This document shows positions 2,018-21,260 of a stretch of 64,000 nucleotides of DNA, in pieces (positions within the stretch are counted from its first letter, which is position 1; every line of letters starts with the position of its first letter). This stretch comes from Phyllosticta citribraziliensis (Eukaryota): positions 2,418,001 to 2,482,000 of the forward strand of contig NW_027117338.1 in assembly GCF_038025025.1 (NCBI RefSeq), read 5' to 3'. The position numbers and the translations under genes were made by a program. Below the pieces are notes generated by a model, which worked only from the letters and a program-made list of their open reading frames with translations, made no database searches and was not told the DNA's origin.

Positions 2018-2369
2018 GGAGGTGATCGGCAAAGCTGTCGCTCCGCGTCAAGACCAACCCAACAAGATCCTGCGCACATGCATTCGACTACTGCGGAGAC
2101 GTGATACGCGTAGTTTCCTGCGCCGTTGATGACCAATAGGAGCGATGATGTTTAGTGAGGGGTATATGATGTGATTGACGCGCCCCTCAGTAACTATTTT
2201 GAGTTGCTGTTGGATGGAGTGATTAGAAATGAGGACCAAAAGCGACGGACCGCTCCGCCAACATATATCTTGGGTCAAGGGAAACGGATTAGGTTTACAG
2301 TATCCAAAGTGCAGGGAGAAAACTTACCTTTTGAACTCTAATCTCGCTTCCTTGAGCACCTCTTACATC

Positions 2370-3623
2370 ATGGCTCCCGGTGCTATTGCTATCCACCCTG
2401 GTATCAAGGACGTTGTTCCTCCCATCAAAGACACCCTCGGACTGCCCGAGCCAGCAAGACAGCGTCTCGAAAAGGCCGGTGTCGACCTCTCGAATGGCTA
2501 CCCTTACCGCCCTGCTCGCCCGCTCTACCTCGACGATGTCTACAAGATCCGCGACTATGACCGCGAACACATAGACCCCGGTTCAAGGGCAGACCCTGAA
2601 AAGAAGGCTCTTTTCTCCGCTGCCGAGAAGGTCATTGACCTTACGGCGCACATTGGTACGGAGATTGTCGGTCTGCAACTGAAGGACCTGTCTCCCCAGC
2701 AAAAGGATGAGCTGGGTCTGTTGATTGCGGAACGAAGCGTGGTCTTCTTCCGCGACCAGGATATTTCTCCCCAACAGCAGAAGGAGTTGGGCGAGTGGTA
2801 TGGTGAGGTCGAAATTCACGTAAGCCATCTGCGCATCCTAGCTCTTTCAAAAGTCAGACTCGCTAAGCAACGAAACAGCCTCAAGTACCCCATGTCCCTG
2901 GAGTGCCCGGCGTGACCGTCATCTGGCCAGCCCTTCAAGCAACTGAAAGACCAGCAAGCTTCCGCAACCCTGGCGGAGCATCCCGCTGGCACACGGACCT
3001 GGTCCATGAGCGCCAGCCTGCGGGTGTGACGCATCTCCACAACGACACAGTCCCCTCTGTTGGCTCAGACACCCTTTGGGCCAGTGGCTACTCCGCTTAC
3101 GAGAAGCTCTCCCCGGAGTTCCGCAAGCTGATTGACGGCAAATCCGCCGTGCATCGTTCCGCCCATCCCTACCTGGACAGGGACCACCCAGAGGAAGGAC
3201 CCAAGTACATCGAGCGCATCCATCCCCTCGTCCGTGTCCACCCCGCTACGGGTTGGAAATCTTTGTTTGTAAATCGCGCAATGACGGACCGCATCGTTGG
3301 TCTGGACAGGGCCGAAAGTGATGTCATTCTCAACTACCTCTACGACGTGTATGAAAAGAACATCGACATCCAGCTGCGATTCAAGTGGACTCCGAGGACG
3401 AGTGCTCTGTGGGATAACCGGTAAGCTTTTCTGGACAAATTTTGACGAAGATGACGTACTGACCAAGCTCTGAAGCATTACCATCCACAACGCCAGCTGG
3501 GACTATGCTGGGAGGGAGCCAAGGCACGGCACTAGGGTGACCGCTCTGGCAGAGAAGCCCTTCTTCGATGAGAAGGCCCCCACGAGGAGGCAGGCTTTGG
3601 GTCAAGCAGGACCTGACGAGTAG
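2370..3623 (+). CDS. Alpha-ketoglutarate-dependent sulfonate/taurine dioxygenase (TauD/TfdA, JLP1-like)
   Basis: MAPGAIAIHP..., with introns 2820-2878 and 3421-3475. Motifs IGTEIVGLQL, RSVVFFRDQ, WHTD (HxD), LWASGY, HPLVRVHPATG, WDNRITIH and RHGTRVT. TAG at 3621-3623. Confidence 0.95.
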
Positions 3624-3941
3624 TCAGTTGGAGATCGGCCACATAGATCAGAGGGAACAGATTGGGCATAGATGTACTGATTGAAGAGCACTTGCGAAGA
3701 AATTGAAGACCTGTGTATCGTTTGGAGCCACGGGCAGTTGTGTGATTCTCCTGCTTGGTGTTGCACCCCAGTGACACTCAATGCAGTCTGTAGTGTTGTA
3801 CACTTGCCCCGATACCGTTGACAACGATCGAAGTGAGCTGGCTGTTTTGCTTGTCCGATGTATTGTTGATGCCAGGATATCGTTCCGATGGGGTTCGTCC
3901 GAGAATTTGCAAGAATAGCAAGTAGGGTAGGCTCCGGGAGT

Positions 3942-5147
3942 TCAAGAGTTTCCGTCGGCGGACGAAGGAGGAACAGGCGCCGCCTCGGTGCCACTGTCGA
4001 GTTTCCTCTTCTTTGCTTCATGCTCGGTCGATGTGGGCTTCGCCGCGTTCACGTTCGCTTTCTCTCTGACCCTGACCGTCTCCCAATTCTCTTGAACCCA
4101 TGCTAAAATTCTGTTCTCACCCGCTTCATCAAGTCCCCGGACCCAAGGGGTCTTCTCCTCGTCGGGCACTGGAGTGGGGTTGAACTTCAACTCGCCATTG
4201 TGGACAGAAACGAACCGGAGGAGTCCCCTGGTCGTAGTCTTCAAGCTTGGGCCGTTGCGTGGGATGACGTTTCTGATGGCGGTCCACAAGGCTTTCTCAC
4301 GCTCCTGCTCGGTGTGTGCAGCAAGCTTCGAGTTGTACTCTTGACGACGTCCAAAGACCTCCAGCGCCTCGTGCAAAACTTTGGCGCGGTCCCACTGACA
4401 GTTGTCGCCTAGTTCATGATTGGAGAACATGAAATCCTCCACGAAAGCACGGAACATGCCGCGTTTCTGGCGTCGGGCCCTGTCGTTGTGCTTTTCGCCT
4501 TCCGTTGGGCCATCCTGCTTGGGAACGATGTTCTGGCGGTTCAAAAAGCGGCAACCGGCGACCCAGTGAAACAGATCCTCCTCGTTGTCGAACCCTTGGT
4601 GGAACTTTTGGCTGTCAAGGCCCAAGAACTTCATGTGAGTGTCGGGATCTTGCGTGAGGTGAATCAAGCTGTCCTTTTTGTTGCTTGTCTCGATCTCGGC
4701 AATGCGGACATGGAGACCTTTATCGTTGGCGGTAAGGCCCAAGCCGCGGATAATAACGCCGATGATCTGAGCAAGGTCGCTGTAAGACGCCTGGAAGACC
4801 TGCCATTGAAAGTAGCCGCGGGGGCAAATTTGCACATCGAGTTGGACAATTGAGTCAGGGATCCCGGGGTGCGGCATGGCGAAGTTGAATGTGGGCCCTT
4901 GGCCTTTCCAAGCTTTTGCACCCAGGGCTTCGGAGATGTCGCTTGGTGTGAGGTGGTCATGGCGAGGACCTTCGACGAGCATGTCAACATCGCCGTGGTC
5001 GACTTTCCACATCGGGGCTTCTGCACTGGTGACGTTCTCATAAATCTGAGCAAGAATGGCGGCGTACTTCAACTTCAGTTCTCCATAGAGCGCGGTTGGA
5101 ATACGGGGGCCCTCAAACCCATCAACCTTGAAGGCGTTTCCACCCAT
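3942..5147 (-). CDS. Uncharacterised 401-aa protein with a predicted PolX/Pol-beta-like nucleotidyltransferase fold
   Basis: Intronless ORF starting MGGNAF. It has KVDHGDVDMLV (GDxD), VQLDVQ (third Asp), RGLGLTANDKGL and NEEDLF, in the order seen in PolX palm/thumb domains. Confidence 0.8.
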   Translation of the reverse strand: MGGNAFKVDGFEGPRIPTALYGELKLKYAAILAQIYENVTSAEAPMWKVDHGDVDMLVEGPRHDHLTPSDISEALGAKAWKGQGPTFNFAMPHPGIPDSIVQLDVQICPRGYFQWQVFQASYSDLAQIIGVIIRGLGLTANDKGLHVRIAEIETSNKKDSLIHLTQDPDTHMKFLGLDSQKFHQGFDNEEDLFHWVAGCRFLNRQNIVPKQDGPTEGEKHNDRARRQKRGMFRAFVEDFMFSNHELGDNCQWDRAKVLHEALEVFGRRQEYNSKLAAHTEQEREKALWTAIRNVIPRNGPSLKTTTRGLLRFVSVHNGELKFNPTPVPDEEKTPWVRGLDEAGENRILAWVQENWETVRVREKANVNAAKPTSTEHEAKKRKLDSGTEAAPVPPSSADGNS

Positions 5148-5474
5148 GGTTCGGCGCAGGGAATTTAAGCAGTCAGGTCGTTAACTGGAGATTAGCTGCA
5201 ATCACAAAAGTTTGCAAGATAGACCTTGAATGTTGGGCAGGTTGTCCGTGAAGATTCGAGAGAGCTTGAGGTGTTGTTGAGAGAAAAGGCATTATGCTCG
5301 ATCACGATGGTCGGCGAAGGCGCTCGCTTATTGCGGGAACGCTATTCCAAGAAAGGCAAAGCGTGGAGCCTGGGTGGCTGATGAGGTGCTGATCTCGTCG
5401 TTCCGATTCCTCCACAGTGGGTGTCCAAAGAAATGCGACAGACCTTCCAGCAACGTAAGTTCAGCTAGTGACCT

Positions 5475-5547
5475 GAGCATTTGTCTGCTACTGTAGTCGC
5501 GCTGAGGGAGCATTCTTTCACTGCTGCATCTAGAGCTAGGGAGTCTC
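5475..5547 (+). repeat. 33-bp-period GAGCATT array A
   Basis: Units begin at 5475 (gagcatttgtctgctactgtagtcgcgctgagg), 5508 (gagcattctttcactgctgcatctagagctagg) and 5541 (gagtctc). Confidence 0.7.
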
Positions 5548-8428
5548 GTTTCTTTCTACACCCACTGTGCCTCCTTTGCAATTGACCATCTTTATTCCTG
5601 ACCGACATGCTCCACGTTTCTCAGAAGGAGAAGTACCAACCGATTATTCCACGTTGAAACAGCAAGAAAATTTTGGGCTCAGACGAGGCTTCTTGAAGTC
5701 GCAAAATTGTTTCAACAAACCGACTGGATTTCGAGTTTCGACGAGGGGACGCATCTCTCCGTTCTATCAGGCAGCGCCTACTCATCGGAGTCGACATTCT
5801 CGACCAGCCCGTCGCAGGCGTCGTCGGTTTGTCTCGGCAGACGATGCTATCACGGCACCCATGTCGCGAAGGGTTTAGTTGCTGTCAACCGAAGCGCTTG
5901 CCATGACCACAGTGATCACAACGCGAAGCTGACCTACAAGTCAGAGAGCTTGCAAGTCGCTATACTGTTTGGAGAAACAAATCTTCCGATGCTGCTTTGT
6001 CTGGGAGAGGCAAAAAAGACAAGCAAGTTGAGTGATGGAGTGGAATGTGGGAGACAAAACAACGGCTGCCTCGCCTCCCGCTGCTGCGCGTCGAGCCTAC
6101 CCAAAGAAGCACGACGGCCCATTTGTGCAACCCTCGGATCAGAATTGGCGCTCCAAGACTATTGTGATCTTATGCAGCCCCCCCGATTGTGCGCTAAGAC
6201 CACAACACACGGAGCCTCCCAAAGAGCAAGCAAGTATTCAATCGCCTTCGAAGTTTGCACGAAATTTCTTGGTAATTTAGCTCAAATTCCTCGAAACATC
6301 CGATAATCAAGCTGGGACTACCACATTCAGCACTCAGAAACTTCTCCAGCAACAGCTTCACCAGCCGCCGCAACTGCCTCTGTCGAAAACGACATTCGCA
6401 ACACTCTCGGAGGACCTCCTCCGTCAAGCAGTGCCTGTTAGACCTGTCCTGACCCAGCCAAAGTCAGTCAGCAAGGTCGGCCAAAAGCCGATGGCTTCGG
6501 CGGCGTCAGACCCGCGGCGGCAAGACTTTGTGCCCTTTATCGCTGTCCTGTGGGTAGTCACTCCTTGGGGGTTCCCATCCGTCCAATGAAGAAGACGGAG
6601 TACATATTTGTAAGTACAACTGGAGAGCGTGTTCGCAGTCTACGTTCATATCGAAGAGGGACAGGGGGTCGCAGGGGCCATCAAGAACGCTCCGTTCTAA
6701 GGTCAATAACAGAGAGAGCATTCAAGACCCAATCCCGATCCCCATCGCCATCTGTCTTGGGACTTTGGCCGGCAAGCCTCAGTCCCTTAATCCTCGCAGG
6801 TGATTGGCGGTTGAGGCGGTTGTGGCGCTACTTTACCGCAACGTTCGCCTGCCATTATTCTCTGCTGTGGGCAACACAAATGGCCTCTCGTTACAGTCTT
6901 GAGCAGCGGTGTGACGATCGAAACGACCCAGTCGAAATTGACTGCGTCTGCTGCCAACAACAATGAAAAACTGAATTAGGGCTTGTAGAAGAGGTCGTGG
7001 GTACATCCGCTCCCCATCTTTGCTATCCAAAACTATCTGCACATAGCTGCCTCTCGTCCTTTTCGCCCTGATTCATGCTTTTTGGAGCATTTTAGTTTAC
7101 TTGCAACTGCATGTACAGAAAATTTCGAATGCTTCTTGCGTTTTGCCTCCTCGGAACTCCGGAGACAGCATTTTTCTTTCCCTTTCAGACTACTGCCAGG
7201 AACATGGACGTTTTGTGGGAGTAATGGAGCAGCAAAGTCAGTCAAACACCACGTTGCATGTGGAACGCGGTGGGCCCCGAAGAGTCTCAATTGCGCAGAA
7301 GCAGACCCAAAAAGCACATGCGCGGCGTCGTACGCCTCCATTTACATCCGTCTCGCGCGTGTCTTGGATTTAGGAGTGCTTCTACCCCTGAGCCCAGTTT
7401 GAATCCATGATCAGTTTCGTCAAGAAGGCCGTCCGTGCGGAGTCGACCATGGAAGGCACTGCTTCTTCATCCACGGTTAGGTACAACAGCCTCGCCATTC
7501 ACGTGCCTTCGCACCGCACCCTTTGCTAGCAAACTGCAACGGCGGCCGCAATAGCTGGTGAGCGCAAATCACAGAGAACTGAAACCTACTCTTCCGAAAT
7601 GGTTTAGCGGTCAAAAATGCAGTCTTTCGGCAGCAGAGCAGCAACACCGCCTGGACTGCCTTGATGCCTCAGGCATCTCTAACCAATGGCAGGGTTTTTT
7701 GAAACCTAGGTATTTCATTGCATCGGCTGACCCGAAAGAAGAGGTGGAAGTCGATGAACAGGATGGAGGGAGGGTTTCGGAGAAGGAAAGCGTGGCGGCA
7801 TTGCGCAGACGGCGATCTGAAGGTGTGGCGGAACGAGACATGATGTAGTTTGACATGATCAACAACTTGATTGGACAGTGTCAAGCCTATAAAGGCAGAA
7901 TAGGCGTACAGAAAAATTGGATGCGGATTGAAACTAGAGGCTCTGCCTGGACGTGCTCGCTATAGAGGGAGGCAAGTAGAAGTTAGGAGCGAGCAACTGG
8001 GCACCGAAAAAAAGAAAAACGCACCCGTCGGCTATGTACCTTGCCTGCTCTGCTGTCTGCCCTCCCTCCACGGCTCTCCCTCCCTACCACCTCAGCGACC
8101 CACGGCGGAACAAAACCACGCACGGCAGTCGTCGGCAATCAAAAGGGCACCGAGAGAGAAAAGCGGCGGTGCGGGCACGACGCCACGGCACGCAGACGGG
8201 CGACGGACGACCAACGACGACGACGACAAGTGAGGACCAACCAACGAACGCACGCATCCAACGCACGATGATGCTCCGACAAAAAAAACTCCACCTCAAC
8301 ATCTCCGGCGGTCCTCCACAAATAATCAAAACGCAAGAGAAAAAAAAAAAAAAAAAACCTTCATCCGTATCGCTACCATGGAACCGCGGCGCGACCTGAT
8401 ATCCTTGTGGCTTGTTCTCCAGTCGCGA

Positions 8429-9594: not shown

Positions 9595-11707
9595 ATGTCC
9601 CGCCAACCGTCCGGCCAGGATGTCATGGAGGGGAGGGTGTTGATTGTCATCACCGGTACGTCCCCTATGGCGGAGAAGCTTTGGCAAGGAAGATCAAGTA
9701 CTCATGCGCAGCACCGCAGGAGGAACCATTTGCATGCAAGAGTCTGAGGATGGCCTGGTCCCGGTACGTCAAGAGTCTTCACGGCCTTGCGCAGTATGCA
9801 TGTCAGCGCGTCTGATTGAATGCATTTCACTCCCTCAATCTAGATGGTTAACCTTGATTGGCATTCCAGGTACCAGGCTTTCTTCGCGCGGGACTTGCCC
9901 CGCGCCCCTCGTTCAACGACGGGTCCTATCCTGAGCCCCTCGAAATCGTCATCGACGATGCCGGCACGCGCAGAGCGGTCCAGTCGCTGCGCACGCCCAA
10001 GTCGTCGTACAAGCGTCGCGTGCGCTACGCCGTCTACGAGTTTGAGACGCTTCTCGACAGCAGCTCCATCAACGCTGCCGGATGGGACGAGATTGCGAGG
10101 ACCATCTACCGCAACTACACCCTCTACGATGGATTCGTCGTCCTGCACGGCACCGACTCGCTCGCTTACTCGTGCTCGGCCCTGTCCTTTATGATGCAAA
10201 ACTTGGGCAAGCCCGTCATCTTGACTGGTAGCCAAGCGCCCATGAGCCAACTTCAAAACGACGCCACCGACAACCTCCTCTCCAGTCTGGTCATTGCTGG
10301 TCACTTCATGATACCCGAGGTCTGCCTGTTTTTCAATTTCAAGCTCTTCCGCGGAAACCGCGCCACCAAAGTGTCAGCCGACGATTTCAACGCCTTCGCC
10401 AGTCCAAACCTGCCGCCTCTGGCAACCATTTCCAGTCTGCGCACAAACGTCGCGTGGAACCTGGTGCACAGGTCGACGAGCGTCCATCCATTCAGCATCC
10501 AGACCAATCTGGACACGACACACGTGGCATGCCTCAGAGTCTTCCCTGGCATCAAGCCGGAAATGGTGGATGCTGTGCTCCGCCTCGATGGTCTGAAAGG
10601 TCTTGTCCTGGAGACCTTTGGCGCTGGCAATGCTCCTGGTGGGCCCGATTCTGACTTTACGAGGGTTCTGGCGGACGCTGTGAAGAGAGGAATCGTGATT
10701 GTCAACGTGACCCAGTGTCTGAGCGGTAGCGTAAGCCCCCTCTACGCCCCTGCCACCGTTCTTGGCCGGGCTGGCATTGTGTTTGGCCTAGACATGACAA
10801 CAGAAGCTGCCCTGACGAAGCTTTCTTACCTGCTTTCTCTCCCAGGGCTATCGCCCACCGATGTCGCCAAGCGCATGTCCACGTCCCTAAGGGGAGAACT
10901 CACCGAGAGCGGACGGATGCATTTCCAGCACCCGGAGAGCGAACACTCGACGCCGGACGCTAGCACCCTCACGACTCTGGGGTACAAGATAAGGGACGGA
11001 GACTTGGAAGGTGTCAACGAGGTGATGCGGTTCGACAACAAGTGGCTGCTGAACGATGCAGATTATGCGGGGAACACGCCTCTGGTAAGTGCACCGTGGT
11101 CACACACTCATTTCAAGACCGGGGAGTACATGTCGGGGATATCGGAGGCCATCGTGTTCGAGTATGAGCACAAGGGCGACGGTGACCTGCCCAGTCCGTC
11201 GTCGCCGTCGCATCGGTAAATGAGAGCAGAGGCATCGTGTCGTCGCAGAGTCCGACAACGGATGTGAGGGCTATCCGGCGACATTCTGCTCGCAGAAGCA
11301 TTGACCGCCCTGGGGTTCCTTTTGTTTGTCTTGCCGCAGTCTTGCAGGCCGACGGCCAGTTGGGTCGTGTGGTGCTGTTATCTACATACACAGAGACGAG
11401 GCAGTCCGTCCTGCATGGTGCTGACGGCTCGTTATAGCACTTGGCGGCAGCCGGGCCAAACGTCGACATGCTGCGCGAATTTCTGTCCGAGGGCGCCTCT
11501 GTCCACCTACGAAACCGCGCAGGACACACGCCACTTTTCCTGGCTGCTCGTGCGGGGTTGCGCAATCATGTGTTGCTGCTGCGGGAGGCGGGCGCGCACC
11601 TTCACGCAGAGGAGCTGGCGGCGGCGAGGCTCCACGCCAGCGAGAGCGGACAAGACGACAGTGTTTGGGGGGTGGCCGGCGTCGAGATTGGTGCTGACAG
11701 CGGTTGA
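9595..11707 (+). CDS. Type I L-asparaginase with C-terminal ankyrin repeats (60-kDa lysophospholipase-like)
   Basis: The spliced start reads MSRQPSGQDVMEGRVLIVITGGTICM (TGGT motif). Introns 9656-9719, 9764-9869 and 11085-11437. Motifs HGTDSLAY, ILTGSQ, ETFGAGN and DMTTEAALTKL, then ankyrin GNTPL|HLAA and GHTPLFLAA. Confidence 0.93.
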
Positions 11708-12078: not shown

Positions 12079-12163
12079 GAATGCTCCCCGTCAGTCGCAG
12101 TCGCAGCGTAGGAATGCTCCCTGTTAGTCGCCGGTACAGGGCATGAATGCTCCCTATCAGTCG
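12079..12163 (-). repeat. 33-bp-period array B (19-bp conserved part plus 14-bp variable part)
   Basis: GAATGCTCCCYRTYAGTCG at 12079, 12112 and 12145, separated by CAGTCGCAGCGTAG and CCGGTACAGGGCAT. Confidence 0.85.
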
Positions 12164-18348: not shown

Positions 18349-18535
18349 GGGAATCATTCAATGGCCTGGGGCAGGACATCTTTCACGAGCATTATGATGG
18401 CCTGCTTGATACTAGGGAGCATTCCTACACACACCCACTGCATGTCGCCAAGACACATCCAAGTGCAGCCACTGCGTCGTGCTGGGGAGCATTCATCACG
18501 TCCAACACCAAGTACTGAGGAGCATTCATGCGCCA
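18349..18535 (+). repeat. Degenerate GGAGCATTC array C
   Basis: GAGCATTC at 18417, 18487 and 18520 (last two 33 bp apart), with degenerate cores near 18352 and 18387. Confidence 0.7.
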
Positions 18536-21164: not shown

Positions 21165-21260
21165 CGCCTAGGGAGCATTCATCTGCTATTACAGTGACGC
21201 CTAGGGAGCATTCATCTGCCATGACAGTGACGCCCAGAGAGCAGTCGTCTGCCATCACAA
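21165..21260 (+). repeat. 33-bp-period array D (best-preserved tandem)
   Basis: gagcattcatctgctattacagtgacgcctagg at 21173, gagcattcatctgccatgacagtgacgcccaga at 21206 and gagcagtcgtctgccatcac at 21239. A further gggagcat core lies at 21076. Confidence 0.9.

Follow-up and report, generated by a model that had tools for sequence, protein, structure and literature searches.

The 64,000-nucleotide stretch of DNA analysed here (the window), from a fungal genome of 31 Mb, carries a real, expressed and conserved gene of an unnamed nucleotidyltransferase (NTase) family with the fold of family X polymerases (PolX). Its product, P0001, probably adds nucleotides to nucleic-acid ends, whether of RNA or DNA. 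The choice between these targets is nearly even, with tRNA slightly the likelier. The reading we tentatively prefer is that P0001 adds one or a few nucleotides to the 3′-OH of a broken nucleic acid, most likely damaged tRNA or another RNA, before a ligase or a CCA-adding enzyme acts. Viral and fungal forms may differ. By the features tested, P0001 lies outside the Pol beta, lambda, mu and TdT, bacterial PolX and RlaP families.

The open reading frame (ORF) is a stop-free translation of 401 amino acids on the minus strand (Table 1); the plus-strand frame of the same interval has three stops. An earlier note, made from the sequence alone, had reported this ORF and its motifs, and all are present in the order given: HGDVDMLV (residues 51–58), VQLDVQ (101–106), YSDLAQIIG (122–130), RGLGLTANDKGL (134–145) and NEEDLF (188–193). 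The same note took the gene to be intronless. Because contigs from two of three runs, with the introns of the TauD-family gene removed, span the whole ORF without a joint, the gene is transcribed and unspliced. Upstream of the ATG these contigs continue for 100 and 220 bases, to 5247 and 5369; the third run gave two short low-depth pieces within the ORF. The runs, none recorded as RNA, were taken as such by guess; spliced GT..AG joints support this, and the contigs are strandless. That this is more than a chance ORF is indicated by 30 proteins at E ≤ 0.001, by the clusters found with a profile and by the AlphaFold model, both described below.

Table 1. Position in the window, strand and basis of each feature of the P0001 gene and of the element upstream of it.
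Feature	Position	Strand	Basis
P0001 gene, 401-aa PolX-fold nucleotidyltransferase	3942..5147	-	Translation, homologues, profile, run contigs
Residues 1–193, palm and thumb of Pol X type (compare ASFV Pol X), with nothing before them	4569..5147	-	Structure matches
K48-x-x-H-G-D53-x-D55, first two catalytic aspartates (Pol beta D190/D192)	4983..5006	-	Conservation; aligned to PolX GDLD/GDVD
Q102-x-D104, third catalytic aspartate (Pol beta D256)	4836..4844	-	99–100% conserved; aligned to PolX QVD
Residues 119–145, nucleotide-binding helices and G-L-x-x-x-D-x-G-L strand	4713..4793	-	D124 = Pol beta D276, Q127 = N279; numbering as in PMC9226535
Family-specific basic motif N221-x-R223-x-R225-x-x-K228-R229	4461..4487	-	Conservation; outside the PolX-aligned part
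Helical C-terminal arm, homologue of the phage NG..GKELG region	4038..4460	-	Models, phage–fungal profile alignment
MITE-like element containing 'Array A', 266 bp upstream of the ATG, outside the gene	5413..5569	.	TIRs, 4-bp flanking duplication, 46 genome matches

The nearest named relatives of P0001 are Phyllosticta proteins (71% and 63% identity), followed by those of Diplodia, Lasiodiplodia and Macrophomina (47–49%). A profile built from 30 sequences found 3,420 clusters at 50% identity, 703 of them at E ≤ 1e-30, so the protein is no orphan. Among the best 150 of the 3,420 clusters, named members are filamentous ascomycetes, comprising Dothideomycetes, lichen-forming and sordariomycete fungi. 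One member labelled Terriglobus sits within the fungal clade and is probably mis-binned. P0001 matched no Pfam family at E ≤ 10, no NCBIfam model and nothing in a single-sequence PDB search, and four phage members matched no relevant Pfam family. It matches PHROG 24943 (E 1.5e-15, residues 48–237), which is the same family; its label, 'DNA polymerase', is automatic, and the papers searched mention neither an experiment nor a fungal member. Phage records of the family are annotated 'DNA polymerase', 'DNA polymerase beta family protein' or NT_POLXc. Matches were found by tblastn in 24 of 50,697 phage records, by pattern scan at 103 IMG/VR loci (80 kept), at 25 loci in bacterial and archaeal genome records, and in two giant-virus contigs; of the single-protein scans of viral contigs, one gave no match and one matched the query alone. 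Phage and fungal profiles align over 320 columns with probability 100. The suggested likeness to phage and large-virus proteins has thus held up, with full-length phage relatives and giant-virus relatives now found. A literature search gave no paper on the family among those listed; the RNA-repair work of Burroughs and Aravind (2016) or supplementary tables may already include phage members.

The AlphaFold model of P0001 (pLDDT 90.8) matches family X polymerases over residues 4–202, and all Foldseek matches listed were Pol lambda, beta or mu. The model aligned with T. thermophilus PolX (VIA Z 11.3, 162 residues, rmsd 3.2), Pol beta (VIA Z 11.1, 174 residues, rmsd 3.5) and ASFV Pol X (PDB 5hr9; VIA Z 10.6, 159 of 176 residues, rmsd 3.2). 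In a wide structure search the top 10 of 48,161 chains were all PolX (Z 8.2–11.3, 159–177 residues). The next-ranking nucleotidyltransferases are set off by a step, with Z ≤ 7 and ∼ 90 residues aligned; cGAS/CD-NTase folds match about 90 core residues (Z 5.0–6.7) and the heads of class II CCA enzymes 82–86 (Z 5.2–5.7). The Pol-beta palm that the earlier note proposed to look for is present in the model and is followed by the PolX thumb subdomain. The N-terminal 8-kDa lyase domain and the fingers are absent: residue 7 aligns to Pol beta 139 and family members begin at MGG. No longer family forms were found, which is weak evidence. P0001 contains no lyase, BRCT or PHP domain, in agreement with the view that it is not a canonical Pol4, lambda or mu. 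With PF14792, two other genes of this genome are recognised as having ordinary PolX palms, whereas that of P0001 is missed.

ASFV Pol X likewise consists of palm and thumb alone, without lyase, fingers or BRCT domains, but shares only 14% identity with P0001, which has ∼ 200 additional C-terminal residues with a basic motif and no GSxRR. With Pol beta, lambda, mu, TdT, bacterial PolX and the fungal PolX1 and PolX2 (PMC12828229), P0001 shares the triad, the thumb and the motif order; it differs from this group in having no 8-kDa lyase, fingers, BRCT, loop1 or PHP. The phage profile matches Pol lambda (E 7e-5) and T. thermophilus PolX (E 2e-4).

Conservation was scored over 217 rows, dereplicated at 55% from 372 and made up of 48 viral loci and 169 database proteins (four phage-like). 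K48, G52, D53, D55, Q102, D104 and D124 are 98–100% conserved; taken separately, viral and other rows give 98–100% for K48, 99–100% for D53 and 98–99% for D55. Profile alignments place D53, D55 and D104 on the PolX triad, and from the fold match the three aspartates would be expected to cluster. The GS(F/Y/A)RR motif with Arg183 is lost in both clades, being replaced by P-x-E-A-P-x-K in fungi and by P-A/S-Y-x-x-K (R in 31%) in viruses. In the Y-F-T-G-S region of viral members (Y/W)N takes the place of GS, and Tyr271 (100%), Asp276, Asn279 (98%) and the basic character of the Arg283 position (92%) are retained. In fungal members Asp276 is kept, as is Asn/Gln279 in 82%, and the steric-gate Tyr (119) and Arg283 (131) positions vary; at Arg283 the two alignments to T. 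thermophilus PolX are offset by one residue, and the ungapped register (131) was used. Asn279 and Arg283 discriminate the incoming nucleotide and the template base (PMC7144901). What had been called a full PolX signature therefore stands for the triad and the order of the motifs, but not for GS(F/Y)RR nor, in fungi, for the steric-gate Tyr and Arg283.

The inactive noncanonical bacterial PolXs are distinguished by having lost GSFRR, GS and the steric gate (PMC9226535), and P0001 could by that token be a catalytically dead nucleic-acid-binding protein of the same kind. We consider this very improbable. Inactive PolXs lose the Asp triad, whereas here it is kept in 98–100% of the 217 rows, and there is no nuclease domain to explain its retention.

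A serious rival to RNA repair is DNA repair by a minimal polymerase of the ASFV Pol X kind, which would fill short gaps or tail DNA ends so that a DNA ligase could act. On this view the basic motif would take over from the lyase domain in binding the downstream 5′ phosphate, and fungi would have a third, error-prone PolX. The domain content is that of ASFV Pol X, every close fold match is a DNA polymerase, and phage and giant-virus members keep the equivalents of Tyr271, Asp276, Asn279 and Arg283; we count the fold matches and the retention of Tyr271, Asn279 and a basic Arg283 in phages, as in DNA polymerases, against an RNA target. However, the GSFRR and GS cis-peptide motif, kept at 97–100% in active bacterial PolX (PMC9226535), is replaced here, the Tyr271 and Arg283 positions are lost in the fungal members, and the genome already has its two ordinary PolX palms.

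Relative to PolX, the family has two additions, R-x-R-x-x-K-R at 223–229 and the helical arm. R225 is present in 100% of viral and 91% of other rows, R229 in 100% and 99%. Of 48,161 chains compared with the phage C-terminal model (arm pLDDT 95.6), three class II CCA enzyme tails take ranks 2, 3 and 13, with Z 4.0–4.5, 49–58 residues aligned and rmsd 2.6–3.4. This likeness is weak, within the noise for helical bundles, and is taken as a lead only; three profile comparisons with CCA enzymes gave P 0.43, 0.27 and 0.18, none of them significant, and P0001, unlike class II CCA-adding enzymes, has no PF01743 match. The C-terminal domain gave no Foldseek match, no match at Z ≥ 5 and no notable PDB or Pfam profile match, which does not establish a new fold.

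Gene order was analysed in 41 viral records of at least 70 kb, in which the distance from the NTase gene to each of 11 marker categories was ranked against all positions (lineages at 45% identity). The top positional signal was the CCA-adding enzyme (eight lineages, mean percentile 0.23, all < 0.45, p = 0.004, about 0.04 corrected). Any RNA-repair gene (21 lineages, 0.33, p = 0.012) and DNA ligase (13 lineages, 0.34, p = 0.047) were also near; Pnk gave 0.29 (seven lineages, p = 0.055) and Thg1 0.38 (seven lineages, p = 0.15). Neither Rnl1 (11 lineages, 0.39, p = 0.10) nor Rnl2-type ligase (15 lineages, 0.42, p = 0.19) was significantly near, and helicase (0.53) and PhoH (0.56) showed no signal. 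For tRNA genes, among the 150 of 755 matches listed, the value was 0.375 (17 lineages, p = 0.044). Proximity to RNA ligase at p = 0.017 rested on weak matches, some of them on DNA ligases, and was gone after cleaning. DNA ligase is as near to the RNA-repair genes as the NTase gene is (0.37 versus 0.38), and paired tests against PhoH and helicase were not significant (p = 0.16 and 0.07). By these ranks, the NTase gene lies in the end-joining and repair quarter of viral genomes, and DNA ligase lies there too.

In the 34 lineages (45% identity, one ligase cluster having been moved to DNA ligase), RNA-repair genes occur within 6 kb in 15, tRNAs in 13 and genes of DNA replication or repair in 13. 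Flanking tRNAs occur at 37 of 84 viral loci, 24 of these from one clade. The CCA gene directly adjoins the NTase gene in phage DT01 and in L088, and locus L148 has the order CCA-Thg1-ORF-NTase. On giant-virus contig L147 the NTase gene is followed by a PP-loop (TilS-type) gene and preceded by an endonuclease/exonuclease/phosphatase gene (weak, E 3e-4). At bacterial locus L093 a CCA-HD-RlaP fusion overlaps the NTase start codon. A Hen1-Pnkp-Thg1 cluster is found in the L036 lineage, and Ro60 and Thg1 lie nearby in L015. RNA-repair neighbours were present at one of the 25 bacterial loci, UmuC/UmuD/SRAP at one (L102) and tRNA at none. RlaP, for which comparable phages give no baseline, exceeded the cut-off in 0 of the 41 records and Rnl2-type ligase in 25; DUF6267 was found in 0 of 41, a search that had no positive control.

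The L093 fusion (3951–5969, Rhodospirillales bin) is one ORF in which RlaP is fused to an HD-domain CCA-adding enzyme. In the L044 lineage, a jumbo-phage clade of 27 loci (e.g. L058, L060, L072), tRNA arrays in the order Cys, Val, Leu follow the gene, RNA and DNA ligases precede it, and some loci have a PARP-domain gene. RNA ligase matches at G034:C1:4621-5190 and G035:C1:132080-132649 contain three internal TAA stops, perhaps from an intron or insertion.

Our tilt to RNA comes from the tight clusters in unrelated lineages (DT01, L088, L148, L093 and L147) and from the absence of RlaP at the cut-off used; CCA proximity, the RNA-repair genes and the ranks of the CCA tails count on the same side. 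The tilt to DNA comes from the fold, the thumb residues kept in viruses and L102 with its UmuC/SRAP neighbours. DNA ligase is about as near as the RNA-repair genes while RNA ligases alone are not significant, and the single RNA-repair neighbourhood among bacterial loci also counts against RNA. Viral neighbours include PolA, PolB, RNase H, UvsW/Y, gp32 and pyrimidine-dimer glycosylase, and these, like the nuclease-type gene before the L147 copy, fit DNA repair; the strongest positional signal, however, is CCA and not a DNA gene.

Other neighbours (NAD salvage, PARP, Nudix and ADP-ribosylhydrolase genes), the patchy distribution of the family over viruses, megaplasmids and bacteria, and the paralogue and broken copy in this genome would fit a role in virus–host or fungus–fungus conflict, with nucleotide transfer to a protein or small molecule or synthesis of a signalling nucleotide. 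We judge this improbable, since the PolX-specific thumb, absent from other Pol-beta-fold enzymes, is kept, and no recurring effector or partner gene was found among the annotated neighbours (136 of 172 clusters and 150 of 293 further ORFs). The nucleotide-signalling enzyme considered in the earlier note is disfavoured by the step in the structure search, with ∼ 90 residues at Z 5–6.7 for cGAS/CD-NTase against 159–177 at Z 10.5–11.3 for PolX.

By analogy, the chemistry would be like that of a minimal Pol X or of RlaP. RlaP (PF10127) is proposed to extend damaged RNA by one or two NMP at its 3′ end ahead of ligation (PMC12776372), and it too occurs in large phages near RNA-repair genes (PMC7824862). 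P0001 differs in having no PF10127 match, a PolX thumb and a far looser neighbourhood link, and its activity is predicted whereas that of RlaP has been demonstrated (PMC12776372). RlaP, CCA and Thg1 are described as jumbo-phage end-repair transferases in passages of PMC7824862 that do not mention PolX.

For the preferred RNA-repair reading we envisage the following mechanism. The three-Asp centre would carry out two-metal nucleotidyl transfer. R-x-R-x-x-K-R would take over the roles of the GSFRR arginine, now lost, and of the absent lyase and fingers, gripping triphosphate and backbone, and the helical arm might hold folded RNA as the tail of a CCA enzyme does. Loss of the Tyr271 and Arg283 equivalents would leave the fungal form ribonucleotide-tolerant and poorly templated. 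Once the broken 3′ end had been extended, a ligase or CCA enzyme would complete the repair.

The fungal members form one clade (support 100 in IQ-TREE, 1.0 in FastTree). Scored against the fungal profile, the giant-virus copy on L147 ranks first of 99 non-fungal sequences at 152 bits, with the next at 134. It has two fungal-type motifs, which occur in 125 and 123 of the 165 fungal rows and in none of the 98 other non-fungal rows. The first motif has two matches across all viral contigs, both on giant-virus contigs; the second of these contigs, chosen by that motif, scores 139 bits. Giant-virus copies join the fungi with weak support, 49% ultrafast bootstrap (37 rows), and, in FastTree, with 0.90 (68 rows, one of them giant-virus); the tree is unrooted for direction, and giant-virus bins may carry host contamination. 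A viral source via a giant virus is plausible. A recent viral insertion is ruled out by the single fungal clade, by a GC content like that of the flanks and by fungal metagenome loci that match in split pieces, as introns would give (7 of 20). Of the idea that the gene is possibly virus-derived, an old viral origin is plausible and a recent arrival is rejected. The gene may be an old viral one, fixed early in filamentous ascomycetes. A fuller scenario, in which large viruses reused the PolX scaffold with a CCA-like tail for tRNA-end repair and a giant virus passed it to the ancestor of filamentous ascomycetes, where it was kept as an RNA-repair or anti-ribotoxin NTase, would make this the third fungal PolX lineage and the first directed at RNA; as a whole we regard it as unlikely.

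Elsewhere in the genome a distant paralogue with the triad (26% identity) lies at G000:C6:1370183-1370920 (L008, 4085–4921, minus strand); its ORF stops at 278 aa and may continue beyond an intron. A broken copy (L009, G000:C9:197515-201850), 58–71% identical, has stops and a frameshift, with pieces ∼ 3.8 kb apart, and adjoins a stretch of 26% GC with TpA/ApT of 1.7–1.9, like the outcome of RIP. In the window, the TauD-family dioxygenase gene (2229–3624, plus strand; introns 2820–2878 and about 3420–3474) is convergent with the NTase gene. The asparaginase gene (9858–11219) lies within about 1–5 kb of the NTase gene here and at five of 20 fungal metagenome loci (L151, L153, L160, L161 and L165, two near-identical) in varying orientation; this proximity is an old linkage. 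Both fungal neighbours are uninformative on function.

The earlier note also considered a link between the gene and a nearby repeat array, Array A, which it allowed might be chance. The array is the inside of a 157-bp MITE-like insertion dispersed genome-wide, and is explained without the NTase gene because it belongs to that element; a link or co-occurrence is unsupported. The element's inverted repeats begin CACAGTGGG, with CCTC on both sides; CACAGTG is the heptamer of the RAG signal. The element has 46 matches in the genome, the terminal 12-mer 96 (5 for a control) and the pair of array units 102 (0 for a control). Among 12 terminus pairings, from 11 elements, eight have an exact 4-bp duplication and none has one of 5–8 bp. 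Of the 102 array matches 100 were listed, and none of these is close to the paralogue or to the broken copy. The inner 33-bp units have a fixed GGAGCATTC and a variable middle. Further arrays at 12079–12163, 18487–18527 and 21165–21259 have no intact termini in the window.

Two family X polymerases are known from filamentous fungi, as described for A. fumigatus (PMC12828229). The family of P0001 represents a widespread third fungal PolX-fold lineage, without a Pfam or NCBIfam model and with a full-length viral counterpart. If the family acts on RNA, the PolX scaffold would have been put to a new use, and the enzyme would be a candidate restorer of ribotoxin-excised nucleotides; one ribotoxin, PaOrf2, takes two nucleotides out of tRNA (PMC12776372). 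If it acts on DNA, it would provide a new small repair or terminal-transferase scaffold.
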